Below are positions 5,101 through 29,720 of a stretch of DNA of 64,000 nucleotides, in pieces (positions within the stretch are counted from its first letter, which is position 1; the number at the start of each line of letters is the position of its first letter). The notes under the pieces were generated by a model. The model saw only the letters and a list, made by a program, of their open reading frames with translations, did no database searches and was not told where the DNA came from. Origin of the DNA: Thermodesulfovibrionales bacterium (GTDB taxonomy: Bacteria > Nitrospirota > Thermodesulfovibrionia > Thermodesulfovibrionales > UBA6898). The stretch covers positions 122,646 through 186,645 of the forward strand of contig JBIOIY010000003.1 of assembly GCA_044450345.1 (NCBI GenBank), in the 5' to 3' direction. Position numbers and translations under genes: made by a program.

Positions 5101-5155
5101 GTAACAGAAAATTAACACTCCTTTAATAATCCATTAACAGACCGTTTGCTATGCT
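5101..5155 (+). promoter_or_regulatory. Pho-box-like promoter: four repeats at 11-bp period plus -10 TATGCT
   Basis: TAA cores at 5102, 5113, 5124, 5135 (extra one at 5080); -10 at 5150-5155. Confidence 0.75.
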
Positions 5156-5174: not shown

Positions 5175-5363
5175 ATGAATATACAATACATTATCTGTCC
5201 CCATCTTAAAGGCAGTTATGACGGAGCGGTCTGCAGCAGCGTCAGCAAGTTGATCAAGAACATAGAAGACGTCACCATTAAATTGTGTATGGGCAGGCAT
5301 TACGAGGTATGCTCGATATATCGGGAGTCTCTGCTCCCTCAGGAGCCTGTCAGTGCCATTTAA
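5175..5363 (+). CDS. Small four-Cys protein
   Basis: SD GGGAGG; CPHL..C..LC..CSIY. Confidence 0.65.
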   Translation: MNIQYIICPHLKGSYDGAVCSSVSKLIKNIEDVTIKLCMGRHYEVCSIYRESLLPQEPVSAI

Positions 5364-5567
5364 GATATGACGCGGACAAGGAAGTCAGTTAGGCCTCTTT
5401 GGCATTTCACGGATTGCCGATGTGTCGATCTTACTCGCCGTCGCCTTGCAAAATTCAGTTCGGACCAGCCGGAAAAATTTCATATTCCCTTAACTTAAAT
5501 GACATCATGCCGTAAAAACCAAAATGATATCCTTAAACTGGATTGTATTTGGAAGAAGGAAACTCGA

Positions 5568-5861
5568 ATGATCACCTATATCATCAAACATCATGTCCCG
5601 GGGCAGATAAGGCTGGATGTTCCTGTATTGAGAAAAATTGCCGAGTATCGGCTAAAAAAGATATCGAAGGCCGTGACAAGGCTTCCCGTCTTTACGGGAA
5701 TAAGAGACCTTACGGTAAATCCAGGGAACGGCAGCGTAGCTATTGAATATGACACCGAAGTTGTCGATATCATAGATTATCTGGAAGACATGGCAGTTAT
5801 TGTCGAAACGCTGGATTGTCTGGAAGGACAAACGCTGGATTGTCCGGAAGGACACCGATGA
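5568..5861 (+). CDS. HMA2-like domain protein
   Basis: HHVPGQIRL...VNPGNGSVAIEYD; 24-bp tandem duplication at 5806-5853. Confidence 0.7.
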   Translation: MITYIIKHHVPGQIRLDVPVLRKIAEYRLKKISKAVTRLPVFTGIRDLTVNPGNGSVAIEYDTEVVDIIDYLEDMAVIVETLDCLEGQTLDCPEGHR

Positions 5862-5872
5862 AGGAGAAAGAT

Positions 5873-6034
5873 ATGGCTTGTATTGATTATCTGGAGACAG
5901 AGGCAAGGTGTTCGAGAGGGATCCCGGTCGCGCATCTTTTCAGGCGTTTCTTCTGTGAGTCAAAGCCTGAAAAATGCCCGATTGTCTTGTGGGAAGTATC
6001 TTCTCGGGCGATAGATAACACTAAATCATCCTAA
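5873..6034 (+). CDS. Small four-Cys protein
   Basis: SD AAGGAG; MAC..C..FC..CPIV. Confidence 0.55.
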   Translation: MACIDYLETEARCSRGIPVAHLFRRFFCESKPEKCPIVLWEVSSRAIDNTKSS

Positions 6035-6044
6035 GGAGGAAGCC

Positions 6045-6224
6045 ATGCAGTGCCCGAATCTTTTGAAATGGGTAATATCATCATGCAAAGCCGTGGAGAG
6101 ACCCTATGTCCCGAGCCTTTTTGAGCTGGAGGAGTATTGTAGCACCGGAGATCACAGGAAGTGTCCTTTTTACATGAGAGACATCGTCAGGCCCAATACT
6201 GTGAGGGATAAAGTGTCCGCATAA
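6045..6224 (+). CDS. Small four-Cys protein, 59 aa (absent from the ORF track)
   Basis: SD AAGGAGG; MQCPNLLKWVISSCKAVERPYVPSLFELEEYCSTGDHRKCPFY... Confidence 0.7.
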   Translation: MQCPNLLKWVISSCKAVERPYVPSLFELEEYCSTGDHRKCPFYMRDIVRPNTVRDKVSA

Positions 6225-6484: not shown

Positions 6485-6778
6485 ATGGGATTGCTTGATG
6501 ATGTATTTAAAGGCGGCAATGTTATAACGGGCTTGGCTATCGGCATCGGAGCAGCGGTGCTTGGACCGGTTGTATTGCCTATATTGGCCGGGGCTGCGAA
6601 ACCTTTGGCAAAGGCCGCGATAAAGGGCGGCCTTGCGCTGTGTGCAAAAGGAAAGGAGTCAGCTGCCGAGTTCGGCGAGGTCTTTGAAGATATTGTTGCA
6701 GAAGCGAAAGCGGAACTCGCGGAAGAGCACGAAAAGGCAATTCCTGTTCCGCCTACCGAAGCGGAACAAAGTGTCTAA
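6485..6778 (+). CDS. DUF5132-like small membrane protein (GxxxG helix plus amphipathic tail)
   Basis: TGLAIGIGAAVLGP...KPLAKAAIKGG...EDIVAEAKAEL. Confidence 0.75.
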   Translation: MGLLDDVFKGGNVITGLAIGIGAAVLGPVVLPILAGAAKPLAKAAIKGGLALCAKGKESAAEFGEVFEDIVAEAKAELAEEHEKAIPVPPTEAEQSV

Positions 6779-7256
6779 TATCCCGGAAGCATTTATAGGC
6801 CATAAGATGACGGGCAGGTTGAGACTAAGGGTCCCGTCGAGAAGAGGAGATGGCGCATATCTGGGAAAAATCACTGAGGAATTCTCATCTCTCCCGGGCA
6901 TTGCGCAGGTAATCGTGAACACCGAAACATCGAGCGTTCTCTTCCTGCATAATCTTTCAGAAGACGCAATTATGGGACATCTCAGTGCAAGCGGTCTGTT
7001 CAGAATTTCGGGGGCTCCCACAGGTCAAGGAGACGTGCATAGCGGAGTCAAAGGATGTTTTCGGGAGATGTCCCGCAAAGTCGAGAAGGCGACGGGAGGA
7101 ACGATGGGTATCAGTGAAGTTGCCTTCCTTGCGCTGTTCGGCGCCGGGGTCATGCAGATAGGTCGGGGGAATTTTACTGCGATCCCCTGGTACACGGCAT
7201 TTTGGTATGCGCTTAATATCTTTCTGAAATCAGACGCACAGAAGGCCGGGGAATAG
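6771..7256 (+). CDS. HMA2-like domain protein with C-terminal membrane segment
   Basis: H..TGRLRLRV...VNTETSSVLFLH; tail GVMQIGRGNFTAIPWYTAFWYA; GTG start overlaps the previous stop. Confidence 0.7.
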   Translation: MSNIPEAFIGHKMTGRLRLRVPSRRGDGAYLGKITEEFSSLPGIAQVIVNTETSSVLFLHNLSEDAIMGHLSASGLFRISGAPTGQGDVHSGVKGCFREMSRKVEKATGGTMGISEVAFLALFGAGVMQIGRGNFTAIPWYTAFWYALNIFLKSDAQKAGE

Positions 7257-7384
7257 CTGTACTCATCCTGTCTGAAGGTGAAGGCGCAATAAACCCGGAG
7301 AGTTCTATTTTTTCATCAGCCTTTTGAAAAAGATGAATGGCTCAGTCAAAAAGTAACTTTTCTCAACAGAGAAGGAGGTCAGTT

Positions 7385-8065
7385 ATGTCTCAGGAAAAAG
7401 TCATGCGCGGCACTCGTTACGCAGAAGAGGTAAGCGAGGCCGGGACGACCGTAAAAGAGGGCGTAGTCAGCAGCCTTAAAGGTCTCAATGAGATTGAGGC
7501 GGAAATCGTGAGCCTCGTGAGGAACACGGTTTCCAACACTTTGCGTGCAACGGGAGAGGTGGCGATCGAAAGTATCTCCATTTCGAAAGACGTCATCAAG
7601 GGGGCTATCCAGGCCACAGAGGAGGTTGGAACAGGACTTATCCTGAGCACGAAAAGTGTTGCCAAAGGGGTGATCATGGGGGTGAGTGATGTAGGCGGCG
7701 ATGTGGTAGCTGTTGCAGGCCAGACAGTAAAAGGCGCGGTAAAGGGGGCCGCTGAAGTCGGCGCGGATGTCGCCCTTGTTGCAAGGAGAGCGGTCGATGG
7801 CGTCATCGAGGCAACAAAGGAGATAGGGGGGAATGTGGAAGATGTCGCGAAAGTGGCAGTCGGAGGGGCGATTGAGGCTGCAGGGACAATAGGTAATACG
7901 GCGGTGAAGGCTGTTAGGGAGATGCTCGTCGGCGTGGTCGAGGGCGTAAAGGAGATTGCGAGCGCAGCTCTGCCTAAACCGAGGACCTCCACACCGGAGA
8001 CAAAAGCGCCTGCATCAAAACCGGTTGTTGCGGAAAAAGCGGCTGCGACCAGGAAAAAGAAGTAA
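7385..8065 (+). CDS. 22-residue amphipathic-repeat protein (copy 1)
   Basis: SD AAGGAGG; periodic V.G.I.A..E[VI]G units; basic Pro/Ala-rich tail. Confidence 0.8.
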   Translation: MSQEKVMRGTRYAEEVSEAGTTVKEGVVSSLKGLNEIEAEIVSLVRNTVSNTLRATGEVAIESISISKDVIKGAIQATEEVGTGLILSTKSVAKGVIMGVSDVGGDVVAVAGQTVKGAVKGAAEVGADVALVARRAVDGVIEATKEIGGNVEDVAKVAVGGAIEAAGTIGNTAVKAVREMLVGVVEGVKEIASAALPKPRTSTPETKAPASKPVVAEKAAATRKKK

Positions 8066-8077
8066 GAATAATACCCC

Positions 8078-11000
8078 GTGGTTCGGCCTGTACACGTTGC
8101 GGTAAGAGGAAGGGCCCGCTTTAAAGTAGCGGGCCTTTATCGGTCTCCCTTACTCAAAGATCGGATTGAACTCACCCTTAATTCACTTGACGGAATAAGA
8201 GAGGCATCGGCCAACACACATACAGGCAATGTTCTTGTATATTTCAATTCTGACAATACTCCCGGGTCAATCGCATCGGCAATAGCAGCGGCAGTGTATG
8301 GCTACAGATCTCAGCATTGTAACAATCATTCTCCGGAAAATAAAGAAGACGCAGACGGCATCATACCCTATCGGCGGAAAGAAGCTCCCGGAGAGCAAGG
8401 CAGGCCTGTTGTTACGAGGAGGAAATTAAGGAAGAGCATCATCAAGGCAGAGGAACAGAATCCTGATCCCTGGCACCAGATGGATGCGCGTGAAGTGGCG
8501 GGAAAGTTTGGCACATCCCAGCACTACGGGCTTCCCAATGACATCGCAAAGACGAATCTGAAGCGGTATGGTCCCAATGTCCTTCCGGAGGCGGTGCCCC
8601 GCTCCGGGTTAAGCATTTTCCTCGGCCAGTTTAACTCACTTCCTGTGGCACTGCTCGGCGTTGCTGCCGGGATTTCTATAGCCACGGGAGGCGTCGCCGA
8701 TGCGATCGTAATTGCCGGCGTGGTGGTCATCAACGCAGTAATAGGGTATGGGACCGAAACCCAGACCGAAAAGACCATCCATGCATTGAAAAGCCTTGTC
8801 AGACCTTCTGCCACGGTCAAGCGGGATGAACAAATTATAGAACTCGGAGCAGAGGAAGTCGTCCCAGGAGATCTGCTGATCCTCAGACCGGGCAGTTACG
8901 TGCCGGCAGACGCAAGACTGCTGGAGACGTATCACCTGAGTATCGACGAGTCCGCACTTACGGGAGAGAGTCTCCCTGTGATCAAAACAAGTTTGCCTTG
9001 CGAGGTTGAAGAAATCCCCCTTGCAGACAGGGTCAATATGGTCTATATGGGGACACTCGTGACCGGCGGGCAAGGGATCGCCGTGGTCGTGGCAACGGGC
9101 AGGTTTACCGAGATAGGAAAGATCCAGGCGCTTGTAGGAGAGGCAGAATCTCCGGACACCCCGATGGAGCGGCAGCTTCATAAAATGGGCACACAGCTTG
9201 TCTTTATAAGCGGAGCTGTCTGCGGACTTGTCTTTATCGTCGGACTTCTGCGCGGATACGGCTTTTTAGAGATGCTCAAGAGTTCCATATCTCTTGCCGT
9301 TGCCGCAGTCCCGGAGGGACTCCCTACTGTTGCAACTACAACCCTCGCCTTAGGTATAAGGGACATGAGGCGGCATAACGTGCTCATCAGGCATCTTAAT
9401 GCGGTCGAAACACTGGGGGCCGTACAGACGATCTGTCTTGACAAGACGGGAACAATCACGATGAACAGGATGTCGGTAGTCGCCGTCCATACCGGCATGA
9501 AACGATATGAAGTCTCAAATGGGGCGATCACGGCTTCCCGGGAGAAGGTGAGCCCCTATTCAGTCGACGAACTCCTTAGGCTGCTGCACGTGAGCGTGCT
9601 CTGCAGCGAGAGCGAGGTCGAAAGAGAAAAGGGTACTTATGCGGTCAGCGGCTCTCCGACCGAAAACGCCCTGATCTATATGGCGTTGAACGCCGGTATC
9701 AATGCCGTTTCTCTTAGAGAGAGCTTCCCCGTGTTGAGCATCACTCATCGTTCGGAAAGTCGCAATTACATGTCTACCGTCCACAAATCCGAGAGTGGAC
9801 CAGTCATCATTGCGGTAAAGGGGAGCCCCGGCGAGGTCCTTTCAATCTGCAACTGGCACATGAAGGGCGGAGAGAAGCTTCCGTTGACGGAGGAGGACAT
9901 GCTTCTCATAGAGACGGAAAATGAACGCATGGCCGGTCAGGCGCTCAGGGTCCTCGGCGTTGCCTATTCATCGCGGGACGATGAGGAAGCCCTCTCCGAA
10001 GATAGAAAAGATCTTCATGAAGACCTGATATGGCTCGGCCTCGTCGGCATGGCAGACCCCATCAGGGAAAATGTGAAAGAACTGGTCCACGGGTTCCACG
10101 AAGCCGGAATCGATACGGTCATGATAACGGGAGACCAGAGCCCCACCGCATATGCTATTGGAAAGGAATTGAATCTGAGCAATAACGGACACCTCGAAAT
10201 CCTTGATTCTACGCACCTTGCGAATATCGAGCCCGAGGTCATGAAGGCCCTCTGTGAGAGGATACACGTCTTTGCCCGCGTCAGTCCTGCACATAAGCTC
10301 CAGATTGTCCAAGCGCTCCAGTCCGCCGGGAAAGTGGTTGCGATGACCGGAGACGGTATCAACGACGGCCCGGCGCTCAAGGCAGCGGATATAGGGATCG
10401 CCATGGGCCACACAGGCACTGATGTCGCCCGCGAGGTGGCTGACGTGATTATTGAAGACGACAATCTCGAAACAATGCTTATCGCGGTAAGCAGGGGAAG
10501 GACAATCTATAACAATATCCGGAAATCAGTCCACTTCCTGCTGTCCACAAACCTCAGCGAGATCATGGTGATGTTCACGGCGATCTCGACAGGTCTTGGC
10601 CAGCCGCTCAATGCGATGCAGCTTCTCTGGATCAATCTTATCACGGACATTGCTCCGGGACTGGCCCTTGCCCTTGAACTTCCGGAGCCGGATGTGTTGA
10701 GCCGTCCCCCCCGGGACCCACACGAGCCGATTGTCAGAAATTCCGATTTCAAGCGGATAGCTTTCGAGTCGGCAATGCTTTCCGCGGGCTCCCTGGGGGC
10801 TTACGGGTATGGCATTGCACGCTATGGAATAGGACCGCGGGCTGGTTCGGTTGCATTCCTCAGCCTTACGGCAGGACAGCTCCTTCACGCTCTGAGCTGC
10901 CGCTCTGAGCAACACAGCATGTTCAGCGCCGAGAGACTGCCACGGAACAAGTATCTTGAAGTGGCACTGGGCGGTTCCTTTGCGCTCCAGATACTGGCGA

Positions 11001-11137
11001 TGACTGTCCCCGGGCTGAGGAGACTTTTGGGAATAGGTCCAATCAGTATCCTCGATGCTCTTGTGATCGGCGGAAGCGCTGCTTTTCCGCTTCTCGTAAA
11101 CGAGGCGACAAAATCCCCCTTGAGGTTGGCAAGATGA
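8078..11137 (+). CDS. P2A (SERCA-like) cation-transporting P-type ATPase with N-terminal HMA2-like domain
   Basis: TGES, VPEGLP, DKTGT, KGSP, TGD, GDGIND, STNLSE and QLLWINLITD; N-terminus H.AVRGRARF...ANTHTGNVLVYF. Confidence 0.9.
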   Translation: MVRPVHVAVRGRARFKVAGLYRSPLLKDRIELTLNSLDGIREASANTHTGNVLVYFNSDNTPGSIASAIAAAVYGYRSQHCNNHSPENKEDADGIIPYRRKEAPGEQGRPVVTRRKLRKSIIKAEEQNPDPWHQMDAREVAGKFGTSQHYGLPNDIAKTNLKRYGPNVLPEAVPRSGLSIFLGQFNSLPVALLGVAAGISIATGGVADAIVIAGVVVINAVIGYGTETQTEKTIHALKSLVRPSATVKRDEQIIELGAEEVVPGDLLILRPGSYVPADARLLETYHLSIDESALTGESLPVIKTSLPCEVEEIPLADRVNMVYMGTLVTGGQGIAVVVATGRFTEIGKIQALVGEAESPDTPMERQLHKMGTQLVFISGAVCGLVFIVGLLRGYGFLEMLKSSISLAVAAVPEGLPTVATTTLALGIRDMRRHNVLIRHLNAVETLGAVQTICLDKTGTITMNRMSVVAVHTGMKRYEVSNGAITASREKVSPYSVDELLRLLHVSVLCSESEVEREKGTYAVSGSPTENALIYMALNAGINAVSLRESFPVLSITHRSESRNYMSTVHKSESGPVIIAVKGSPGEVLSICNWHMKGGEKLPLTEEDMLLIETENERMAGQALRVLGVAYSSRDDEEALSEDRKDLHEDLIWLGLVGMADPIRENVKELVHGFHEAGIDTVMITGDQSPTAYAIGKELNLSNNGHLEILDSTHLANIEPEVMKALCERIHVFARVSPAHKLQIVQALQSAGKVVAMTGDGINDGPALKAADIGIAMGHTGTDVAREVADVIIEDDNLETMLIAVSRGRTIYNNIRKSVHFLLSTNLSEIMVMFTAISTGLGQPLNAMQLLWINLITDIAPGLALALELPEPDVLSRPPRDPHEPIVRNSDFKRIAFESAMLSAGSLGAYGYGIARYGIGPRAGSVAFLSLTAGQLLHALSCRSEQHSMFSAERLPRNKYLEVALGGSFALQILAMTVPGLRRLLGIGPISILDALVIGGSAAFPLLVNEATKSPLRLAR

Positions 11138-12345
11138 AAAAAGACTTCATATTTACATCCGAATCGGTTACCGAAGGCCATCCTGACAAACTCTGTGACC
11201 AGATCAGCGACGCACTTGTCGACCACTTCCTTCAGCAGGACCCCTTTTCGCGGGTCATTGCCGAGTGCGCCGTATCAACAGCGATCATTTTCATCGCCGC
11301 GAGGTTTTCATCCGACGCCAGTGTCGATTTCCCGAATATCGCCAGACAGGTCATCAACCAGATCGGGTATGACCAGCAGGCTTTTAACGCGAAGACCTGC
11401 AGCATCGTCACAAGCCTCAAAGAACTGCCCTCCGCAGAGGACCAGCGCTTTGACGAGAGGAATCTGACGGAAGATGAAATTGACGCTATCCCCGTCCGTA
11501 ATCAGGTCACCGTATTCGGATTTGCCTGCAACCAGACACCCTCGCTAATGCCCCTTCCGATCTGGCTCGCCCATCGACTGGCACGAAAACTTACCGCAGT
11601 GAGACTCCAAAAAGTGCTTCCCTATCTGGCGCCCGACGGAAAAACCCAGGTCAGCGTGGAGTATAAGAATGGAAAGCCCTACCGGATCCACACCATAACG
11701 GTCATAGCCAGTCAGAACAAGACGGAGAAGTCGGGCGGTCCAGACCTTAAGAGACTTTATGATGATATGCTGGATACCGTCATTCGTCCCGCCTTTCTTG
11801 ACGAGGAGATCAGACCCGATGCCGGCACAAGGATATTCATAAACCCCGATGGTCCTTTTATCACGGGCGGACCCTCAGTGCATTCAGGGCTCACAGGGAG
11901 GAAGAATGCGATCGACACCTATGGTGAATATTCCCGGCAAAGCGGCGCGGCCCTCAGCGGCAAGGACCCTCTTCGGATAGACAGAATCGGCGCGTATGCC
12001 GCCCGGTATGCGGCAAAGAATATCGTTGCCGCGGGCATCGCCGACGAATGTGAAATTCAGTTGAGCTATTCCATAGGGCTGTCCCGTCCAGTAAGCATTC
12101 AGGTAGAGACATTCGGCACAGGTCGGATTTCCGACGAAGAGATTTCCAGAATTATCGAAGGCCTGTTTGATTTCCGCCTCGCAGGGATTGTCCGCCAGTT
12201 CAACCTCAGATTTCTCCCCTCCATAATCAAGGGAGGCTTTTACAGGAAACTTGCCTCTTATGGTCATGTTGGCAGAATGGATATCGGTCTTCCCTGGGAA
12301 TTGACGGATAAGGCCGGCATACTTCGTGACGAAGTTGCCGGGTGA
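11134..12345 (+). CDS. Methionine adenosyltransferase (MetK) paralogue with divergent active site
   Basis: FTSESVTEGHPDK, DGKTQV, GLTGRK, SGKDP and YGH are present; the GAGDQG signature is replaced by PVRNQV; ATGA overlap with the ATPase. Confidence 0.85.
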   Translation: MKKDFIFTSESVTEGHPDKLCDQISDALVDHFLQQDPFSRVIAECAVSTAIIFIAARFSSDASVDFPNIARQVINQIGYDQQAFNAKTCSIVTSLKELPSAEDQRFDERNLTEDEIDAIPVRNQVTVFGFACNQTPSLMPLPIWLAHRLARKLTAVRLQKVLPYLAPDGKTQVSVEYKNGKPYRIHTITVIASQNKTEKSGGPDLKRLYDDMLDTVIRPAFLDEEIRPDAGTRIFINPDGPFITGGPSVHSGLTGRKNAIDTYGEYSRQSGAALSGKDPLRIDRIGAYAARYAAKNIVAAGIADECEIQLSYSIGLSRPVSIQVETFGTGRISDEEISRIIEGLFDFRLAGIVRQFNLRFLPSIIKGGFYRKLASYGHVGRMDIGLPWELTDKAGILRDEVAG

Positions 12346-12439
12346 GAGACTTATGATAGCCGGGTACGTGTCGATCCTTCCGGTGGCCCGTTAAGAAGGC
12401 ATCTACCGGTTGTAAGCGCCCCGCTTTTTTTGTTCTCCT

Positions 12440-12494
12440 GTAACGAAAACTTCACGGTAGCGTCAACTTCCCTTAACGTTCCATCCGTTACAAT
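12440..12494 (+). promoter_or_regulatory. Pho-box-like promoter plus -10 TACAAT
   Basis: GTAAC/TTCAC/GTCAA/TTAAC with cores at 12441, 12452, 12463, 12474; -10 at 12489. Confidence 0.65.
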
Positions 12495-12528
12495 TCACCT
12501 GTCAATTTCTTCGACAGGGAGGTGCGAC

Positions 12529-13323
12529 ATGTATCACGATGCCAAAACGAATTTTATGATGACGCAGGGTCGCTTTCTGGTAAAGCTGGCGGAGGACCGA
12601 AGTGAGTTGGAAAAGGCTCTGAAACTCAGATTTGAGGTGTTCAATCTCGAACTCAAGAAAGGGCTCGCCATATCCTACCTTAATGGGATGGACACGGATG
12701 AATATGATAAGTACTGCGCCCATCTCATCGTAATCGACGCTGACTTCGACAGGGTGGTCGGGACCTACCGGTTATTACCTGGTTTTGTTGCTGAATTCAA
12801 TGTCGGATACTATTCGGAAAACGAGTTCGATATGACCAACATAAAGAACCTGCAAGGGGAAAAACTTGAGCTCGGCCGATCATGCGTGCACAGGGACTAT
12901 CGAAACGCCCAGGTCATTAACCTGTTGTGGGCGGGTATTGCAAGGTACGTGGAATTGTATAACATCCGTTATTTATTCGGATGTGCAAGCCTTTGTTCCT
13001 CGGTCACGGAAGAGGTCAGCCTTGTCTATTCCTACCTCTCCCGTCATCACCCTGCCGAACCTCGTTATTCCGTATATCCGCTGCAGAAAGTAACTGGACT
13101 GCGCATGCTCCAGGTCGAAGACCGGAGAGAGGCATTGAAAATGCTGCCGCCGCTCATAAAAGGGTATACGTCCCTTGGCGCAAACATTTGCGGAAAGCCA
13201 TCGTACGATGCCATTTTCGGAACTGCTGATTTCTTCGTTCTCCTCCAGACGGAAAAAATTATGGCCCGCTACCGGAAGAAGTATTTCCAGGAACAAGAGG
13301 AAGCGTTGTGCCCCGTATCATGA
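12529..13323 (+). CDS. olsB: GNAT N-acyltransferase, OlsB-like (ornithine/amino-lipid synthesis)
   Basis: LRFEVF, D.DEYD.YC.HL, VGTYRL, YSENEF, LELGRSCV, LLWAGI, FGCAS and PPLIKGY. Confidence 0.75.
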   Translation: MYHDAKTNFMMTQGRFLVKLAEDRSELEKALKLRFEVFNLELKKGLAISYLNGMDTDEYDKYCAHLIVIDADFDRVVGTYRLLPGFVAEFNVGYYSENEFDMTNIKNLQGEKLELGRSCVHRDYRNAQVINLLWAGIARYVELYNIRYLFGCASLCSSVTEEVSLVYSYLSRHHPAEPRYSVYPLQKVTGLRMLQVEDRREALKMLPPLIKGYTSLGANICGKPSYDAIFGTADFFVLLQTEKIMARYRKKYFQEQEEALCPVS

Positions 13324-14114
13324 GGGCGGGCAAAGCACTGTGCTTGGCGGTGTTGCATCTCGCATGTCTGTTGACCGGGTTGGTCATCGCGGTCCCCTTT
13401 CTTGTCAGCCGCGACCGGAAGGCCAGAGCAAGGGCCGGGGGTATGATGATCTGGGCAAGATGCGCGTGTTGGATACTGGGCATAAGGATTCATCGCACGG
13501 GTTCATGTCCTCCCGTCAAGGGCATGTTTGTGGTCAGCAACCATAGCAGTTATCTCGATATCATTGTTCTCGGAAGTTTATTTCCCGCAGTTTTTTTGGC
13601 GAAGAAGGAAGTCGGGTCCTGGCCCCTGATCGGGTGGCTTGCGCGGCTTGCAGGTACGCGCTTTGTCGTGCGGGAATCGAGAAAGTCCACAGCGGACGCG
13701 CTTGAAAATATAAAACGGCTACTGGATTCCGGAATGAATGTGATCGTTTTTCCTGAGGCTACTACCAATGATGGGACAATGGTCAGGGACTTCAAGAGTT
13801 CCCTTTTTAAAGCTCCTGTTGACATGAAGATACCGGTGCTGCCGGTCAGCGTCATGTACTCGCACGTGAACTCAATCGCCATGACCCCGGAGATGCGGGA
13901 CTCTGTTGCGTGGTACGGGGAAATGGACCTTATTCCTCATCTTTGGGATGTGCTTGGCCTGAAGCGGATTGATGTCAGGGTGCACCGCTGCCCTGTGATA
14001 CGGGAGGTCCTGGCTGAGGACAGCTCCAAAACCAGGAAGATACTAGCCGCTTTCGCCCATAGCGAAGTCATGTCAGGATTGGAAAGTCTGAGACTTGAGA
14101 TATCCTCTTCCTAA
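13308..14114 (+). CDS. Lysolipid acyltransferase (PlsC/OlsA family)
   Basis: NHSSYLD, FLAKKE, FPEATT and AWYG.M. Confidence 0.85.
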   Translation: MPRIMRAGKALCLAVLHLACLLTGLVIAVPFLVSRDRKARARAGGMMIWARCACWILGIRIHRTGSCPPVKGMFVVSNHSSYLDIIVLGSLFPAVFLAKKEVGSWPLIGWLARLAGTRFVVRESRKSTADALENIKRLLDSGMNVIVFPEATTNDGTMVRDFKSSLFKAPVDMKIPVLPVSVMYSHVNSIAMTPEMRDSVAWYGEMDLIPHLWDVLGLKRIDVRVHRCPVIREVLAEDSSKTRKILAAFAHSEVMSGLESLRLEISSS

Positions 14115-16060: not shown

Positions 16061-16657
16061 ATGAAAGCTGAAGCAACCAGTAACGTAAATGTTCGTGAAG
16101 AAATCGGCAAGGCGGGAACGACCGTCAAAGACGGAATGATCAGCAGCTTGAAAGGGATTAATGAGATCGAAGCAGAGATTGTAAGCCTGGTCCGAAACAC
16201 AGTATCCCATACGTTTCATGCAGGCGGCGAAGTCGCACAGGAGAGTCTCTCACTCACCAGGGAGGTGGTGAAAGGCGCAATAACTGCCGCTGAGGAAGTC
16301 GGCACAGGCCTGATCATGAGCACAAAAAGTGTAGCAAAAGGGATAGTGATGGGAGTAAGCGATGTCGGCGGTGATGCGGTTGCTGCCGCAAGCCAGACTG
16401 TAAAAGGCGCGGTAAAGGGAGCCGCGGAGGTCGGCGCTGATGTTGCGCTGGTAGCCAGGAGAACAGTTGATGGCGTCATCGAGGCGACCAAAGAAATAGG
16501 TGGAAATGCGGAAGACGTTGCGAAAGTGGTTGTGGAGGGTGCAATCGAAGCTGCGGGCAGTATCGGAAACACTGCGGTGAAAGCGGTAAGGGAAATGTTG
16601 GTCGGCGTTGTTGAGGGAGTAAAGGAAGTTGCAAATGCGGCCCTTCCGAAGCGATAA
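16061..16657 (+). CDS. 22-residue amphipathic-repeat protein (copy 2, paralogue of 7385-8065)
   Basis: Long stretches identical to copy 1, e.g. NEIEAEIVSLVRNTVS and TVKGAVKGAAEVGADVALVARR. Confidence 0.8.
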   Translation: MKAEATSNVNVREEIGKAGTTVKDGMISSLKGINEIEAEIVSLVRNTVSHTFHAGGEVAQESLSLTREVVKGAITAAEEVGTGLIMSTKSVAKGIVMGVSDVGGDAVAAASQTVKGAVKGAAEVGADVALVARRTVDGVIEATKEIGGNAEDVAKVVVEGAIEAAGSIGNTAVKAVREMLVGVVEGVKEVANAALPKR

Positions 16658-19164: not shown

Positions 19165-19911
19165 ATGCAGATAGTATCAGTAGCAAACCATAAGGGTGGA
19201 GTCGGGAAGACTACCTCGGCAGTCAATATTGCCGCCTGTTGGGGAGAGACGGGGCAAAGGGTTCTCCTTGTTGATCTCGACCCTCAGGGAAGTGCAAGCA
19301 TGTCTTTCGGCATAGAGAATGACGGAAACGATATCCTGCAGGCATTACAGAAGACCATAGCATTGCCTGTAGTGAGTACTCAAGCCGAAGGCGTGGACCT
19401 GGTTCCTGCCGGGCCTCATCTCGCGTCCGCCAGACAGAGATTTACCGGGGCAATAGGCAAGGAACTGCTGCTTCGTTGCCTGAAACAAATGCAGGATGGT
19501 TGGGACAGGGTAATTATAGATTGCCCGCCCAGTTTAGGGATTCTCACCATGGCTGCTTTGTGGGCAAGCAATCATGTCATTATCCCTGTTGAAGCAAACT
19601 ATTTGGCGATGAGCGGCCTTAAACAGATGGTGGATACCGTTAAATCTGTGGGAAATGATCACCCTGGCATCGCTATCAGGGCCGTCATACCATGCCGGGC
19701 TCACCCAAGGCGCAGAGTTCATCAGGCGGTCATGGAACAGGTTGAAAAGCTTTTCCCGGAGAAAGTCTCGCCGATCGTCCGGGAGAACGCAGCTCTGGCC
19801 GAAGCTCCCGGACGCGGGCGGCCGATCATACTTTCTGCCCCTAAATCCCACGGGGCCGAAGATTACCGACAAGTTGCATTATGGTTGTCTGACCATATCG
19901 GGAAGATCTGA
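19165..19911 (+). CDS. ParA/Soj-family ATPase (no parB alongside)
   Basis: NHKGGVGKTT, DLDPQG, IIDCPPSLG and LAEAP. Confidence 0.9.
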   Translation: MQIVSVANHKGGVGKTTSAVNIAACWGETGQRVLLVDLDPQGSASMSFGIENDGNDILQALQKTIALPVVSTQAEGVDLVPAGPHLASARQRFTGAIGKELLLRCLKQMQDGWDRVIIDCPPSLGILTMAALWASNHVIIPVEANYLAMSGLKQMVDTVKSVGNDHPGIAIRAVIPCRAHPRRRVHQAVMEQVEKLFPEKVSPIVRENAALAEAPGRGRPIILSAPKSHGAEDYRQVALWLSDHIGKI

Positions 19912-20579: not shown

Positions 20580-21056
20580 ATGTTGACAAAGGATGGATTG
20601 AAGGAATCAGCAAAAGGAAAATCGGCAAAGCCGGTTTCTCCCATCGCAACCAAACAAAATCATGTCAAGAAGGATCCAATAAAAAAGGGGAGGGGCCTAC
20701 AAGAGATAGCGTCTGAGCATGAGACTCAAAGCAAGTCGGAAAAAGGAAATGGAGGCATCGAGAGAGAGTATTCATCCCCGGCCTCTTCCTGCAAGGTAAC
20801 CTTTCGACTGCCCAGGGAAGTAGCCGGCGCTGCCAAAAAGGCTTCACTCGTCGGAGACTTCACCCACTGGGAAAAAGGCGCGCAGCCGATGAAGAGGCTC
20901 AAAAGCGGTCATTTTGAAATAACGCTTGAGTTACCGTCCAACGCGGAATATAGGTTCCGGTATCTCATTGATGATTGTCGCTGGGAGAATGATCGGCATG
21001 CCGATGCATTCAAACCAAATCCCTATGGATGTGAGGACTCGGTAATTATTTTGTGA
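20580..21056 (+). CDS. Glycogen-binding (isoamylase early-set/CBM48-like) protein
   Basis: VTFRLP, LVGDF..W, Y.FRYLID..W.ND. Confidence 0.8.
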   Translation: MLTKDGLKESAKGKSAKPVSPIATKQNHVKKDPIKKGRGLQEIASEHETQSKSEKGNGGIEREYSSPASSCKVTFRLPREVAGAAKKASLVGDFTHWEKGAQPMKRLKSGHFEITLELPSNAEYRFRYLIDDCRWENDRHADAFKPNPYGCEDSVIIL

Positions 21057-25199: not shown

Positions 25200-25253
25200 A
25201 TAACGCAAACTTAATATTTCCTTAATATTGTTGTAACAATGCAATGCTATTTT
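25200..25253 (+). promoter_or_regulatory. Pho-box-like promoter (distal to pstS)
   Basis: TAA cores at 25201, 25212, 25223, 25234; -10 TATTTT at 25248. Confidence 0.65.
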
Positions 25254-25337: not shown

Positions 25338-25391
25338 GTAATATGAATTTAACTTCCTTGTAACATTCTTGTAATAATTGGGCTGTATCCT
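25338..25391 (+). promoter_or_regulatory. Pho box and promoter of pstS
   Basis: TAA cores at 25339, 25350, 25361, 25372; -10 TATCCT at 25386. Confidence 0.8.
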
Positions 25392-25419: not shown

Positions 25420-26430
25420 ATGAGAGCGTTCTTCAAATTAACCTTGGCAATAGCGGTGATCTTGATGTTTACCAATGTGTATGCGGCAGAAACACTTAAC
25501 GGAGCAGGAGCGACTTTCCCTTATCCTGTTTATTCTGCATGGGCCTTCGACTACAGCAAGGTTGCAGGAATGCAACTGAACTACCAGTCCATAGGTTCCG
25601 GCGGCGGCATCAGGCAGATTACAGAGAGGACCGTTGATTTCGGCGCATCCGATGCGCCCCTAAAGCCTGAGCAACTTACCAAAGATAAGCTGCTGCAGTT
25701 CCCGGCAGTTATCGGCGGCGTGGTCCCCGTGATCAATGTTTCAGGAGTGAAAGCCGGTGAGCTTAAACTCGATCCTGACGCCCTCTGCAAGATATACCTG
25801 GGAGACATTAAATACTGGGACGACAAAACGATTAAGTCTTTGAATCCCAAACTGAATCTCTCGCATGACGAAATTACGGTAGTCCACAGGTCGGACGGTT
25901 CAGGAACTACTGCGATATTTACAGAATATCTCAACTCGGTATGCCCCGACTGGAAAAGCAAGGTTGGCGCGGGGACTTCGGTGAAGTGGCCCGTCGGCAT
26001 AGGCGGCAAGGGAAACGAGGGCGTGGCGAACTATACAAAGAGGACCGCAAACTCCATAGGATATGTCGAGTTTGCGTATGCAAAGCAAAACAAGCTTGAG
26101 CATGTCCAGCTTAAGAACAAGGCGGGAAATTTTATACAGCCTAGTTTCGAGAGTTTCGAAGATGCGGCAGACACAGGTGACTTTGATGCAAAGAAAGACT
26201 TTCATCTCTGGCTGGTCAACGCGCCGGGCAAAGGCTCATGGCCTATCGCAGGAGCGACATTCATTTTACTGGCGAAAGAGAAGACCGACTCAAACAAAAA
26301 AGTGGTAACATTTTTTGACTGGGCCTTTAAAAACGGAGACAGCAAGGCAAAAGAACTGGTTTACGTCCCTTTACCGAAATCTTTAAAGGACAAGATAAGG
26401 GGTTACTGGAAGGCAAACGGTCTGCAATAA
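25420..26430 (+). CDS. pstS: Phosphate ABC transporter substrate-binding protein
   Basis: GAGATFPYP, YQSIGSGGG, DFGASD, RSDGSGTT and GKGNEGVA. Confidence 0.97.
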   Translation: MRAFFKLTLAIAVILMFTNVYAAETLNGAGATFPYPVYSAWAFDYSKVAGMQLNYQSIGSGGGIRQITERTVDFGASDAPLKPEQLTKDKLLQFPAVIGGVVPVINVSGVKAGELKLDPDALCKIYLGDIKYWDDKTIKSLNPKLNLSHDEITVVHRSDGSGTTAIFTEYLNSVCPDWKSKVGAGTSVKWPVGIGGKGNEGVANYTKRTANSIGYVEFAYAKQNKLEHVQLKNKAGNFIQPSFESFEDAADTGDFDAKKDFHLWLVNAPGKGSWPIAGATFILLAKEKTDSNKKVVTFFDWAFKNGDSKAKELVYVPLPKSLKDKIRGYWKANGLQ

Positions 26431-26441
26431 TCATTCGGGAG

Positions 26442-26478
26442 AATTGGGGCAGGGCACAAAGCCTGCCCCAATTTTTTT
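26442..26478 (+). terminator. Hairpin plus U-tract after pstS
   Basis: AATTGGGGCAGG...CCTGCCCCAATT followed by a T run. Confidence 0.7.
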
Positions 26479-26510
26479 ATAAAGGATTGGCTGAAAAGGT
26501 GGCAATATAA

Positions 26511-27452
26511 ATGGCAAGAACGGCGAGGAAGAATCCGGTGGACATGTCCTTTTCCGTTATCACCGGTATCGCTTCTTTTTCAGTTGTCATTTTTATTATC
26601 GGAATTCTTTATGTGCTTATATCGGAGTCTTCCCTCGCAATAGGGAAATTCGGGGTCATTAAGTTTCTTACTTCGACAGACTGGGACCCGGTGAAAGAGT
26701 CTTTCGGAGCTCTGACGAATATTTACGGGACTGCTGTAACGACGATCCTATCCCTTATTATCGCGATCCCCGTTGCCATAGGAATTGCGATATTCGTCAC
26801 CGAAATATCCCCGAATTTTCTGAAGGGACCAATCGGGATAGCGATAGAGCTCCTGGCGGCAATACCGAGCATTATTTACGGCATGTGGGGACTTTTCACC
26901 CTTTCGCCGATAATGAGCAATCACATAGAGCCTTTCCTCAAGAAGATCTTCGGGTCCATCCCCCTTGTGGGGATACTTTTCCAGGGTACGCCGATGGGGA
27001 TCGATATCCTCACGGCGAGTATTATTTTGAGTATCATGATCATCCCTTTTACCGCAAGCATATCGCGGGATTCATTCAATCTCACGCCGGCGGTGGTGAA
27101 GGAGTCGGCATATGCGATCGGCGCCACAAAGTGGGAGGTGGTAAAGAATGTCATTCTGCCGTATTCAAAGCTCGGCGTTTTCGGAGGGGTGGTTCTTTCT
27201 CTCGGGCGGGCGCTCGGAGAAACAATGGCAGTCGCCTTTGTGCTCGGCAATAACCACAGGATCACGACATCCCTTTTTGATGCCGCCGCGACCATTACGG
27301 TAACACTTGCAAATGAGTTTACCGAGGCGGACAAGGACGTTTACCTTTCCTCGCTGTTTTATCTGGCATTAGTACTCTTCGTGATGAGCTTTATTACCCT
27401 GGCCATCGCAAAATATTTTCTCCTTAAGGCAGAAAGGAAATATTCGAGATGA
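26511..27452 (+). CDS. pstC: Phosphate ABC permease
   Basis: ELLAAIPSIIYG and LGRALGETMAV. Confidence 0.95.
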   Translation: MARTARKNPVDMSFSVITGIASFSVVIFIIGILYVLISESSLAIGKFGVIKFLTSTDWDPVKESFGALTNIYGTAVTTILSLIIAIPVAIGIAIFVTEISPNFLKGPIGIAIELLAAIPSIIYGMWGLFTLSPIMSNHIEPFLKKIFGSIPLVGILFQGTPMGIDILTASIILSIMIIPFTASISRDSFNLTPAVVKESAYAIGATKWEVVKNVILPYSKLGVFGGVVLSLGRALGETMAVAFVLGNNHRITTSLFDAAATITVTLANEFTEADKDVYLSSLFYLALVLFVMSFITLAIAKYFLLKAERKYSR

Positions 27453-28288
27453 CTAGGGAACAAAAAAGAAAAGTGGAAGGGACTATCGCACTATTCCTGA
27501 GCACCATGGCCGCCTTTTTCGGCCTGTTCTGGCTTGTCTTTATACTGGGAGATGTACTTGTCCATGGAATAAAGGCTTTGAATCCAGGCCTTTTCATGAA
27601 TGACCCTGTGCCGCCGGGCGTTGAGGGAGGGGGGCTGAGAAACGCTTTTGTGGGGCAGCTTATGATAACCATACTTGCAACATTTATCGGGGTTCCAATC
27701 GGCGTGCTCGGGGGGACGTTTCTTGCCGAGTATGCACGGGGCAGAAAGATCGCAAGAATGATCAGTATACTCGCCGACATCATGGTGAGCGTTCCCTCTA
27801 TCGTTATAGGTACATTCATCTACGCGATTCTTGTGAAACCTGTGGGACACTTCAATGGATGGGCAGGCGCAGTTGCACTGGCGATCATCATGGTTCCTGT
27901 AGTGCTCAGGACGACCGAGGACATGCTTTCCCTCGTGCCGTGGACTTTGAGAGAAGCCGCTTTTGCCCTGGGTGCGCCCTATTACAAAGTGATCACCCAG
28001 GTGGTTTACCGGGGGGCGGCAACAGGGATTCTTACCGGTATCCTCCTCTCGATCGCAAGGGTGGCAGGAGAGACTGCGCCTCTTCTGTTCACTTCATTCA
28101 ATAACTCTTTTTTCTCTCTAAACATGCAGCAGCCTATTGCTTCTCTTACTGTAACGATCTTTCAGTATGCCATGGGACCGTATGATAGCTGGCATACGCA
28201 GGCATGGGCCGCAGCATTCGTGATTACGATATTCATACTCATCCTGACAATCACGGGAAGACTGATCATCAAGTGGAGGTACAAATAG
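27449..28288 (+). CDS. pstA: Phosphate ABC permease
   Basis: [16 protein letters not shown] and [13 protein letters not shown]. Confidence 0.95.
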
Positions 28289-29052
28289 TGTCCGAGACTG
28301 TTGAAATAGAAGTAAAAGACTTGAACTTCCATTACGCCGGGGATATTCACGCCCTTAAAGAAGTAAATCTGGCGGTCTATAAAAACGCGGTTACCGCGCT
28401 GATAGGTCCGTCCGGCTGCGGCAAGACTACCTTGCTCAGATGTTTCAACCGGATGCATGACCTCTATCCGAAGAACAGGTATGAGGGGGAGATACATTTT
28501 CAGGGGAGCAACATCCTATCGAAAGAGACCGATCTCATACACCTCAGGAGCCGCATAGGGATGGTCTTTCAGAAGCCGACCCCGTTTCCGATGAGTATCT
28601 TTGATAATATCGCGTACGGTCTTAAACTGAACGGGGTGGGCAGAAGATCGGATTTGGCGGAAAAGGTGGAGAAAGCCCTTGTGCATGCTGCCCTGTGGGA
28701 CGAGGTGAAAGACAAACTCGGCGCGAGCGCCTATGAACTGTCGGGGGGACAACAGCAGAGGCTCGTTATCGCGAGGGCACTTGCGGTGAACCCTGAAGTG
28801 CTGCTCTTTGATGAACCGACTTCCGCACTGGACCCTATTTCGACTGCAAAGATAGAGGAACTTGCTACGGCCTTGAAAAAGGAGATTACTATAGTTATAG
28901 TTACGCACAACATGCAGCAGGCTGCGAGGATATCAGACTGGACCGGCTTCTTAATGCTGGGGGAATTGATCGAGTTCGGCAGGACCGATAAGATTTTTAC
29001 CGCACCATCTGAAAAACTCACAGAAGACTATGTAACGGGGAGGTTCGGTTGA
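28288..29052 (+). CDS. pstB: Phosphate ABC ATPase
   Basis: [27 protein letters not shown] and [12 protein letters not shown] start inferred. Confidence 0.95.
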
Positions 29053-29720
29053 TGACTGTTTTTGATGAGGAATTACAGCACCTGAAAGAGAAGCTGCTCA
29101 AGATGGGGTCCCTTGTCGAGGACGCTATCAAGAATTCGGTCCTGTCCCTCGTGGAGAGGGACAACGACCTTGCGCGGAGGGTCATCGATAATGACCGCCT
29201 CGTAAACACCCTAGACGTCGAGATCGACGAGGAATCGATCCGGCTCATTGCACTGAGACAGCCGATGGCAGGCGATCTCAGGTTTATCACAACAGCCATG
29301 AAGATTACCACCGATCTCGAGAGGATGGGAGACCTCGGGGTAAATATAGCGGAAAGGGCACTCGAACTCAACCAGGAGCCTATATTGAAGCCCTATATCG
29401 ACATCCCTAAAATGAGGGAGATTGCCCAGGGGATGACAAGGGACGCACTCGACGCCTTCGTGAGAAAAGACAAGAAGCTCGCTATGGATGTGATCATGCG
29501 GGATGATGAGGTCGACGATCTCAAACACGCAGTCTTACAGGAGCTGGCCTTTTTTATGGTCCAGGACCCTACTACGGTAACCCGGGCGATGAAGATAAGC
29601 TTTGTTGCTCAATATCTTGAAAGGATCGCGGACCATGCTACCAACGTCGCAGAGATGGTCATATATCTGATTGAAGGGAAAATAATCAGGCATATGACGT
29701 TGCCCCCAGAAAATATGTAG
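29052..29720 (+). CDS. phoU: Phosphate signalling regulator
   Basis: QP.A.DLR, DLERMGD and LERIADHATN. Confidence 0.95.
   Translation: MTVFDEELQHLKEKLLKMGSLVEDAIKNSVLSLVERDNDLARRVIDNDRLVNTLDVEIDEESIRLIALRQPMAGDLRFITTAMKITTDLERMGDLGVNIAERALELNQEPILKPYIDIPKMREIAQGMTRDALDAFVRKDKKLAMDVIMRDDEVDDLKHAVLQELAFFMVQDPTTVTRAMKISFVAQYLERIADHATNVAEMVIYLIEGKIIRHMTLPPENM

Follow-up and report, generated by a model that had tools for sequence, protein, structure and literature searches.

What is encoded by a gene that resembles metK and overlaps the gene of a calcium-type pump? We addressed this question for an open reading frame (ORF) at 11134..12345 (+ strand, 403 amino acids) in a stretch of 64,000 nucleotides from a Thermodesulfovibrionales bacterium, referred to below as the window. 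Its product, here called the MetK-like protein, has the fold of methionine adenosyltransferase (MAT), the S-adenosylmethionine (SAM) synthetase known in bacteria as MetK, with a rebuilt methionine pocket. Judging from its residues and their conservation, the protein is probably neither a relic nor a SAM synthetase and would have been neofunctionalised.

The MetK-like protein matched all three MAT Pfam domains (PF00438, 121.9 bits; PF02772, 121.1 bits; PF02773, 180 bits). Against TIGR01034, the metK equivalog model with a cut-off of 309.4 bits, it scored 375.6 bits and the canonical MetK of the same genome 596.1 bits. Its closest solved structures are bacterial MATs (E-values from 1e-100 to 2e-94), and it is 48% identical to the genome's own MetK. 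We aligned it with that canonical MetK and with E. coli K-12 MetK (from NC_000913), using the residue numbering of the literature on E. coli MetK (precursor minus 1). The residues E8, H14, D16, E42, D163, K165, F230, R244, K245, K265, D271, and I302 are kept. This set includes all triphosphate, Mg, and K ligands of E. coli MetK plus the catalytic acid, and it contains the pair E42-R244, which bridges the dimer in MetK. The methionine ligands, on the other hand, are changed (E55R, Q98L, D118N, D238H, and K269R), with the three acidic groups E55, D118, and D238 now R, N, and H: GGEITT of E. coli MetK reads AARFSS around position 55, GAGDQG reads PVRNQV (G117R, D118N), GPMGDCG reads GPSVHSG (D238H), and the loop around Q98 is longer and unrelated to that of E. 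coli. The alignment bore out each residue that the original prediction had listed as retained (H14/D16, E42, D163/K165, R244/K245, K265, and D271) and each change that it had listed (E55R, the replaced Q98 loop, GAGDQG to PVRNQV, D238H, and K269R). Beyond that list we found T227D, R229P, G253E, G258S, G260A, and F262L. Furthermore, a seven-residue insertion precedes the C-terminal YGH motif, and GGGAFSGKD reads SGAALSGKD, so that neither GAGDQG nor GGGAFSGKD, which we take to be the signature motifs of the MAT family, is intact. Two of the adenosine contacts, F230 and D163, are retained, and two others have changed (T227D and D238H). An AlphaFold2 model of the monomer had a mean predicted local distance difference test value of 83.8 and a predicted template modeling score of 0.84; its confidence fell below 50 at residues 241-272, the active-site loop that needs the dimer partner, and the model does not inform on the pocket.

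The altered positions are those to which published work assigns the binding of methionine. In PMC3853416, the amino group of methionine is held by Asp238 and Glu55 and its carboxylate by Gln98 and Lys269, with Ile102 touching the side chain; His14 is the catalytic acid, adenine stacks on Phe230, and the ribose hydroxyls are held by Asp163 and Asp238. The human equivalents Glu70, Gln113, and Asp258 have the same roles in PMC6850014, which also describes patient variants (D258G and K289N) that lose SAMe (SAM) synthesis with phosphatase activity unaffected. Thr227 is reported to bond adenine N1 and Lys165 to contact O4'/O5', with Gly117 and Asp118 near the base (PMC8715544), and the two subunits of the dimer are joined by a salt bridge between Arg264 and Glu57 (E. 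coli R244 and E42; PMC3793261). The proposal that the methionine ligands have been lost thus agrees with the ligands published in PMC3853416 and PMC6850014.

Next, we looked into how these changes are distributed among relatives. The 120 best database relatives are 76-99% identical to the MetK-like protein, and among the 121 closest relatives R55, H238, and R269 each occur in 121/121 and N118 in 114/121. We also examined 78 distinct pump-linked sequences, a paralogue set chosen by H238; the count of H238 within it holds by construction, and when ATPase adjacency was used for the choice instead, both H238 and R269 were present in 80/80 loci. Each residue of the triphosphate/metal set is kept in 76-78 of the 78 pump-linked sequences (E42, K245, K265, and D271 in 78; D163 and K165 in 77; H14, D16, and E8 in 77, with one gap). 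E is absent from position 55, where 70 sequences have R, 4 have Q, and 2 each have V and H; at position 118, N predominates (65), ahead of D (8), H (4), and S (1). The changes G253E, G258S, and F262L occur in 77, 76, and 77 sequences, and residue 239 of the protein (E. coli T227) is Asp or Glu in 75. F230 is kept in 60 and I302 in 70; the positions of Q98 and I102 are variable, and the lid is not conserved. When the 78 sequences were compared with 76 canonical ones, 53 positions were conserved and identical in both, including the whole triphosphate/metal set; G54A, H189Q, D238H, G258S, K269R, and V270I were fixed but different; and Q98, I102, G117, and S273 were conserved in the canonical set only. 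Four pump-linked members (L085, L086, L088, and L089) lack F230, having R, I, Q, and V there, and keep the triphosphate set; more distant relatives of the clade also lack K165.

These forms share one origin in our phylogeny. We built a FastTree tree of 180 rows (74 pump-linked sequences including the window's protein, 3 canonical loci, 101 representatives of a 50%-identity library, E. coli MetK, and the genome's MetK), leaving out L048 and L063, whose match contained a stop. All divergent forms fell into one clade of 90 rows (Shimodaira-Hasegawa-like support 100, stem 0.38) nested among canonical MetKs, and the window's protein lies in a 74-row subclade (support 99) in which position 55 is R in 68 rows, Q in 4, and V in 2. 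The window's protein carries all the marks of clade membership (H238, R269, L262, E253, and S258) and, on its predicted sequence, belongs to a pump-linked and hitherto undescribed clade of the bacterial-lineage MAT fold. The ratio of nonsynonymous to synonymous substitution rates (dN/dS) was 0.067 between the MetK-like gene and its nearest orthologue (L004), and of 1378 pairs, the 49 whose dS was usable (0.05 < dS < 1.5) had a median of 0.10; the highest values, about 0.48, came from very distant pairs. The original prediction had named pseudogene decay as one of the outcomes that would undo it. Since orthologues share the changes as fixed features and a dN/dS of about 0.1 is a sign of purifying selection, the gene is not decaying.

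The MetK-like gene follows the gene of a P2-type ATPase (SPCA/LMCA1-like, Ca2+/Mn2+-type) with an N-terminal CoBaHMA domain (8078..11137, +), a class assigned from profile and structure relatives. The ATPase frame ends in AAG ATG A at 11137 and the ATG of the MetK-like gene is at 11134, which confirms in the sequence the 4-nt ATGA overlap that the original prediction had taken as coupling the two genes. The MetK-like gene is thus predicted to be translationally coupled to the ATPase gene and is the putative last gene of its operon. We gathered 80 loci from genome contigs, 77 of them divergent and 3 (L024-L026) holding canonical metK without cassette genes; a metagenome scan yielded 6 divergent loci among 80, for a total of 83 divergent loci. 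By record label, the 77 comprise Nitrospirota (50), Thermodesulfobacteriota (12), 'Deltaproteobacteria'-type (8), Brocadiales (2), Deferrimicrobiota (1), Pseudomonadota (2), and none (2); six of the eight 'Deltaproteobacteria'-type loci are filed under Myxococcota in the taxonomy table, and labels of metagenome-assembled genomes may be wrong. The ATPase gene lies upstream on the same strand in 79 of the 83 loci. The other four have no upstream DNA to judge by, three being cut by the contig start and L086 having only 30 bp upstream. The ATPase gene directly precedes the MetK-like gene in 79/79 informative loci, in several phyla, and this ties the divergent clade to the ATPase, a point for which the original prediction had proposed a phylogeny. 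The gap between the two genes is -4 nt in 38/79 loci and below 150 nt in all but two (L005 and L011, where the ATPase match ended early).

The usual gene order is DUF5132, CoBaHMA-hairpin, helical-repeat protein, ATPase, and MetK-like gene. In the deeper loci L085, L088, and L089 the neighbours are instead CorA/MgtE_N, PHA_gran_rgn, and Zn_peptidase_2, the ATPase still has HMA_2, and the 4-nt overlap is kept. Because the partners differ in the deeper loci and the ATPase and the overlap persist, the pump and the MetK-like gene form the core pair. Across 301 Nitrospirota genomes, 42 carry the MetK-like gene in addition to the source genome (about 1 in 7). Matches to the protein in these genomes are bimodal, at 553-747 bits (63-81% identity) versus at most 372 bits (at most 50% identity). 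The high-scoring group has 43 copies in 42 other genomes, and 42 of these copies adjoin an ATPase orthologue; the single unpaired copy (in G158) is at a contig start. Two relatives of the ATPase lack a MetK-like neighbour, one in G038, where the ATPase is at a contig start, and one in G098. A predicted complex of the MetK-like dimer with ATPase residues 1-180 scored 0.00, without controls, and weighs neither way. In one locus (L165, G039:C3:652000-664000) the ATPase is in four out-of-frame pieces beside an intact MetK-like gene, and this may reflect either a broken pump or indel errors of long reads.

Is the MetK-like protein needed for SAM? The separate canonical metK that the original prediction had proposed to look for is present in the same genome, on contig C40 (596.1 bits, as above). 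It adjoins the S-adenosylhomocysteine hydrolase gene (ahcY), which follows it, an ordinary methyl-cycle pair. A canonical or archaeal-type MAT co-resides in the source genome and in 40/42 other cassette genomes. A further metK-type match occurs in 37 of these 42, not counting G212, whose bacterial metK is split by a TGA stop; in G127, G151, G179, and G193 the MetK-like query matched only the paralogue. G151, G179, and G212, all of the Nitrospirota genus g100, encode an archaeal-type MAT (PF01941, about 537 bits) roughly 6 kb away from the MetK-like gene, and this enzyme evidently supplies SAM there (coordinates G151:C70:5491-6675, G179:C46:3575-4762, and G212:C2:330366-331553).

Several features of the window connect the operon with phosphate. 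A Pho-box-like array stands before the first ORF of the operon (5101..5150, +). It consists of four KTAAYA hexamers phased at 11 bp (5101-5139) and, after a 10-nt gap, a -10-like TATGCT; a ribosome-binding site (AGGGAGG) comes next, and the ATG is at position 5175. Three phased hexamers with at most one mismatch have 5 matches in the window versus 0.01 expected, and with at most three mismatches there are 17 versus 0.67 expected, a statistic that is only indicative, because the pattern was derived from the sites that it counts. All 5 of the stricter matches are at the operon start or upstream of pstS (25211-25238 and 25338-25376), in front of pstSCAB-phoU (25420-29720); the extra sites precede a PHP/GT21 pair, a cytochrome-P460-like gene, and others. 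Across loci, the exact pattern occurs in 30/77 cassette loci versus 0/86 other loci, the 86 being from other taxa, and many of the cassette-locus matches are on the opposite strand beside the cassette. OlsB/OlsA-like genes, both below NCBIfam cut-offs, come directly after the MetK-like gene (12430-14114). A weaker phased KTAAYA array (2-3 mismatches; 766-804, +) was also seen, before genes for a PHP-domain protein and a GT21 glycosyltransferase (858-2768, +). GT21 enzymes make phosphate-free glycolipids under phosphate limitation. The GT21 gene and the OlsB/OlsA-like genes suggest a membrane-remodelling Pho island.

We also examined genes of polyphosphate metabolism. No Ppx-GppA, PPK1, or PPK2 was found in the source genome (91% complete). 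Of the 43 sampled genomes with the cassette, PPK1 was found in only two, G288 and G158; PPK2 and PPX were checked in the source genome only. In the 301 sampled Nitrospirota genomes PPK1 was found in 50, almost all in two families; its absence is a trait of the lineage and not of the cassette. The idea of a phosphatase that mobilises polyphosphate was downgraded, PPX, PPK1, and PPK2 not having been found in the source genome.

With moderate confidence, we favor the reading that the MetK-like protein is a hydrolase or cleaving enzyme of inorganic triphosphate (PPPi) or nucleoside triphosphate (NTP), with an anion-binding second site, and that it works with the pump under phosphate starvation. 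The most likely single chemistry would be triphosphate (PPPi/NTP) hydrolysis, with a phosphate-type or carboxylate anion bound at the second site. The protein would still form a MAT-like dimer, bind an NTP or PPPi at the dimer interface, and cleave or hydrolyse it, and any synthesis of SAM by it would be too slow to be useful. The pocket that once held methionine, now cationic (R55, R/K117, H238, and R269), would bind an anionic group. The protein would act with the pump during phosphate starvation, with the housekeeping metK supplying SAM. That the pocket is both cationic and invariant argues that it would accept an anionic group instead of methionine. Deep members of the clade lack the adenine-stacking residue and keep the triphosphate set, so that the common denominator of the clade would be the handling of triphosphate. 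Moreover, the strict retention of the Mg-triphosphate centre, together with new basic residues at the former ammonium site, suggests a ligand-binding and probably catalytic protein. The D118N and D238N variants of E. coli MetK reportedly lose about 1000-fold of SAM synthesis and largely keep PPPi hydrolysis (Taylor and Markham 1999).

Several points weigh against this reading. The MetK-like protein still passes the TIGR01034 cut-off. In G098, genes for DUF5132, CoBaHMA, and repeat proteins and for an ATPase that is 44-46% identical occur without a MetK-like gene (L164, G098:C19:27500-38500), and no other MAT was found in the cassette genomes G127 (89% complete) and G193 (300 contigs). The circularity of the Pho-box statistic has been mentioned, and a role in polyphosphate turnover or degradation is weakened by the gene survey above. 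With F230 (60/78), D163, K165, H14, and I302 kept, a nucleoside may still bind and be transferred, and the invariant new residues of the pocket would argue for a specific second substrate.

Some of these points lead to a different enzyme, a nucleosidyl (adenosyl, perhaps guanosyl) transferase acting on a non-methionine nucleophile that is likely anionic or devoid of the alpha-amino group, with a nucleoside conjugate and PPPi as products. We regard such a transferase as unlikely, and it is the rival that deserves most attention. It would make use of H14, of the O5'/alpha-phosphate lysine K165, of the ribose ligand D163, and of F230 and I302, all kept in the subclade (F230 in 60/78, I302 in 70/78), and the fact that R55, H238, and R269 are fixed and not free to vary suggests a gained ligand. 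The adenine-N1 ligand T227 (PMC8715544) is D or E in 75/78, which could change the base preference; a carboxylate at this position could favor a base that donates a hydrogen from N1, e.g., guanine or hypoxanthine. A transferase is harder to reconcile with the loss of the stacking residue in L085, L086, L088, and L089 (R, I, Q, and V), with the loss of K165 in more distant clade relatives, with the variability of Q98 and I102 in the lid that would close over the second substrate, and with the absence from the cassette of any conserved gene for a candidate acceptor or for a downstream user. That the protein is a non-catalytic subunit of regulatory or sensor type, which would bind ATP, PPPi, or another anion and gate the ATPase in the manner of a pseudoenzyme, seems quite improbable to us: the full catalytic set, and not merely the binding residues, is invariant across phyla, and a whole-length dN/dS of about 0.1 fits an enzyme equally well. 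The obligate and mostly translational coupling to the pump gene in 79/79 informative loci speaks for it, as does the G098 cassette, where the MetK-like gene is missing and CBS-domain DUF294 nucleotidyltransferase-like genes, of the kind expected of sensor proteins, flank the cassette on both sides, one of them with a domain that binds cyclic nucleoside monophosphates (cNMP-binding). That cassette also has its small CoBaHMA gene on the opposite strand.

It is very improbable that the protein is a second, condition-specific SAM synthetase made, for instance, under phosphate starvation, given that both alpha-amino ligands (E55 and D238) and D118, Q98, and I102 are replaced, that another MAT co-resides in the source genome and 40/42 other cassette genomes, and that the human D258G and K289N variants lose SAMe synthesis (PMC6850014). 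This alternative draws on the TIGR01034 score above the cut-off, on named relatives labelled methionine adenosyltransferase or S-adenosylmethionine synthetase, on R269, which could still bind a carboxylate, and on G127 and G193, the two cassette genomes in which no other MAT was found. A decaying duplicate, a pseudogene in progress, can be practically dismissed: the MAT signature motifs are indeed degenerate, but the frame is open, dN/dS is 0.07-0.14, synteny is conserved, and the same substitutions are fixed across at least 4 phylum labels.

The cassette around the putative triphosphate hydrolase gives some indication of its setting. The closest solved relatives of the ATPase are SPCA1 (3.9e-143) and Listeria LMCA1, and its best profile is a PMR1-type Ca-ATPase model, with a score below the cut-off. 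It keeps PEGL and DKTGT, as well as a SERCA-like N..E in transmembrane segment 5 (TM5) and N..D in TM6, which we take to be the ion-site residues of the pump. The CoBaHMA domain makes up its first 80 residues, with G11, R12, and R14 invariant in 53 orthologues. An analogy with the ferrosome (fez) system was set aside, since the pump is of the P2 Ca type and not P1B. Upstream of the pump are a small CoBaHMA-like (HMA_2) protein (5499..5861, +; PF19991 at 29.5 bits, cut-off 30), homologues of which stand near the cassette in many loci; a DUF5132 protein with one N-terminal hydrophobic segment (6485..6778, +; PF17195, 55.1 bits), found upstream of the pump in most loci; and a CoBaHMA (HMA_2) protein with a C-terminal hydrophobic hairpin (6633..7256, +; PF19991, 41.1 bits over residues 55-195), whose start is probably near 6807. 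A phasin-like helical-repeat protein rich in Ala, Gly, and Val (7337..8065, +; 242 amino acids) is conserved directly upstream of the pump. It had no Pfam match, and its language-model feature similarity of 0.92 to a cluster auto-named 'Phasin family protein' is a lead only. A second helical-repeat (phasin-like) protein (16061..16657, +) matches the same locus positions as the first. Behind the MetK-like gene lies a weak terminator-like hairpin with a T-run (12414..12436, +; 5-bp stem, 3 GC pairs), which is a match to the consensus only.

Other genes of the surroundings were recorded as well. The operon begins, between the Pho-box array and the gene of the DUF5132 protein, with three small ORFs of 53-62 amino acids (5175-5363, 5873-6034, and 6045-6224, +). 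All three encode four similarly spaced cysteines and lack a Pfam match, and they may represent a small family of paralogues with a metal- or redox-binding function. A gene for a ParA/MinD-type ATPase comes directly after the MetK-like gene in L008 and L018-L020 and 1.7 kb downstream of it in L007; in the window, a gene of this type (19165-19911, +) is 7 kb downstream. Nearby genes encode a CBM48 protein (20580-21056), Nramp, MntP, and an MgtE_N/CBS protein.

From the membrane-hairpin and phasin-like neighbours comes the conjecture that the cassette serves an organelle. A bolder proposal, which we consider doubtful, is that the MetK-like protein would be the first MAT-fold enzyme with a non-SAM role and would, in partnership with the Ca2+-type pump, form or use up inorganic triphosphate or a nucleoside-anion conjugate. 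Phosphate starvation would induce a calcium inclusion coated with membrane or phasin, which this compound would serve as counter-ion, stabiliser, or signal; the inclusion would be related to the CoBaHMA/DUF5132 machinery that accompanies calcyanin in cyanobacteria that form carbonates. If the proposal were true, lineages in which PPK1 was not found could form short-chain polyphosphate by a PPK-independent route.

What the MetK-like protein means for the family can be said more broadly. It represents a widespread paralogue under strong selection, in which the triphosphate half of the active site has been kept, the other half appears re-engineered, and the gene has been welded to one pump family in a putative phosphate-starvation operon; beyond Nitrospirota, records that carry it have Thermodesulfobacteriota, Brocadiales, and Deferrimicrobiota labels. 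The label of methionine adenosyltransferase or S-adenosylmethionine synthetase on its relatives is probably wrong, and mislabelled relatives inflate the apparent copy number of metK in metabolic reconstructions. Were the substrate identified, an old fold would gain a new reaction, and the function of the CoBaHMA pump cassette would probably be explained as well. To our knowledge, the MAT fold has no other assigned function. In PMC3793261, no enzyme other than MAT is said to make SAM. No account of the MetK-like protein or of a pairing of MetK-like protein and P-type ATPase turned up in the literature that could be searched; the CoBaHMA family paper (Gaschignard et al. 2024), which could bear on this, lies outside that literature.

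Three known systems, and one lineage of the same enzyme, are close enough for comparison. The neighbours of the pump recall the ccyA locus of Microcystis aeruginosa PCC 7806, where DUF5132 and CoBaHMA-hairpin (PF19991) proteins likewise stand beside a Ca2+ transporter (bioRxiv 10.1101/2024.07.07.602159). The neighbourhood of ccyA, the calcyanin gene, is a candidate gene set for intracellular amorphous CaCO3, and discussion of CoBaHMA and DUF5132 proteins has so far been confined to this Microcystis setting, with calcyanin and a Ca2+/H+ exchanger as their neighbours. The ccyA locus differs in having that exchanger and calcyanin, 'P-type' occurs 0 times in the text of the paper, and no calcyanin match was found among the window proteins scanned. 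Bacterial MetK (E. coli, PDB 1FUG/1RG9/7LL3) has in common with the MetK-like protein the three-domain MAT fold, the triphosphate, Mg, and K ligands, and the salt-bridge pair of the dimer. In contrast to MetK, the MetK-like protein has E55, Q98, D118, and D238 replaced, the changes K269R, T227D, and G253E, a longer and unconserved lid loop, and the seven-residue insertion before YGH, and its gene stands outside the methyl-cycle context and always follows a P-type ATPase gene. The human MAT1A variants D258G and K289N (PMC6850014) affect the same positions, E. coli D238 and K269, that are changed in the MetK-like protein; in the latter, a protein predicted from sequence, selection has fixed H and R at these positions, and further residues of the pocket have changed as well. 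The archaeal-type MAT (PF01941) is likewise a divergent lineage of SAM synthetase. It keeps a working methionine site built from other residues (PMC3853416), whereas the MetK-like protein falls within the bacterial lineage and no longer has such a site.

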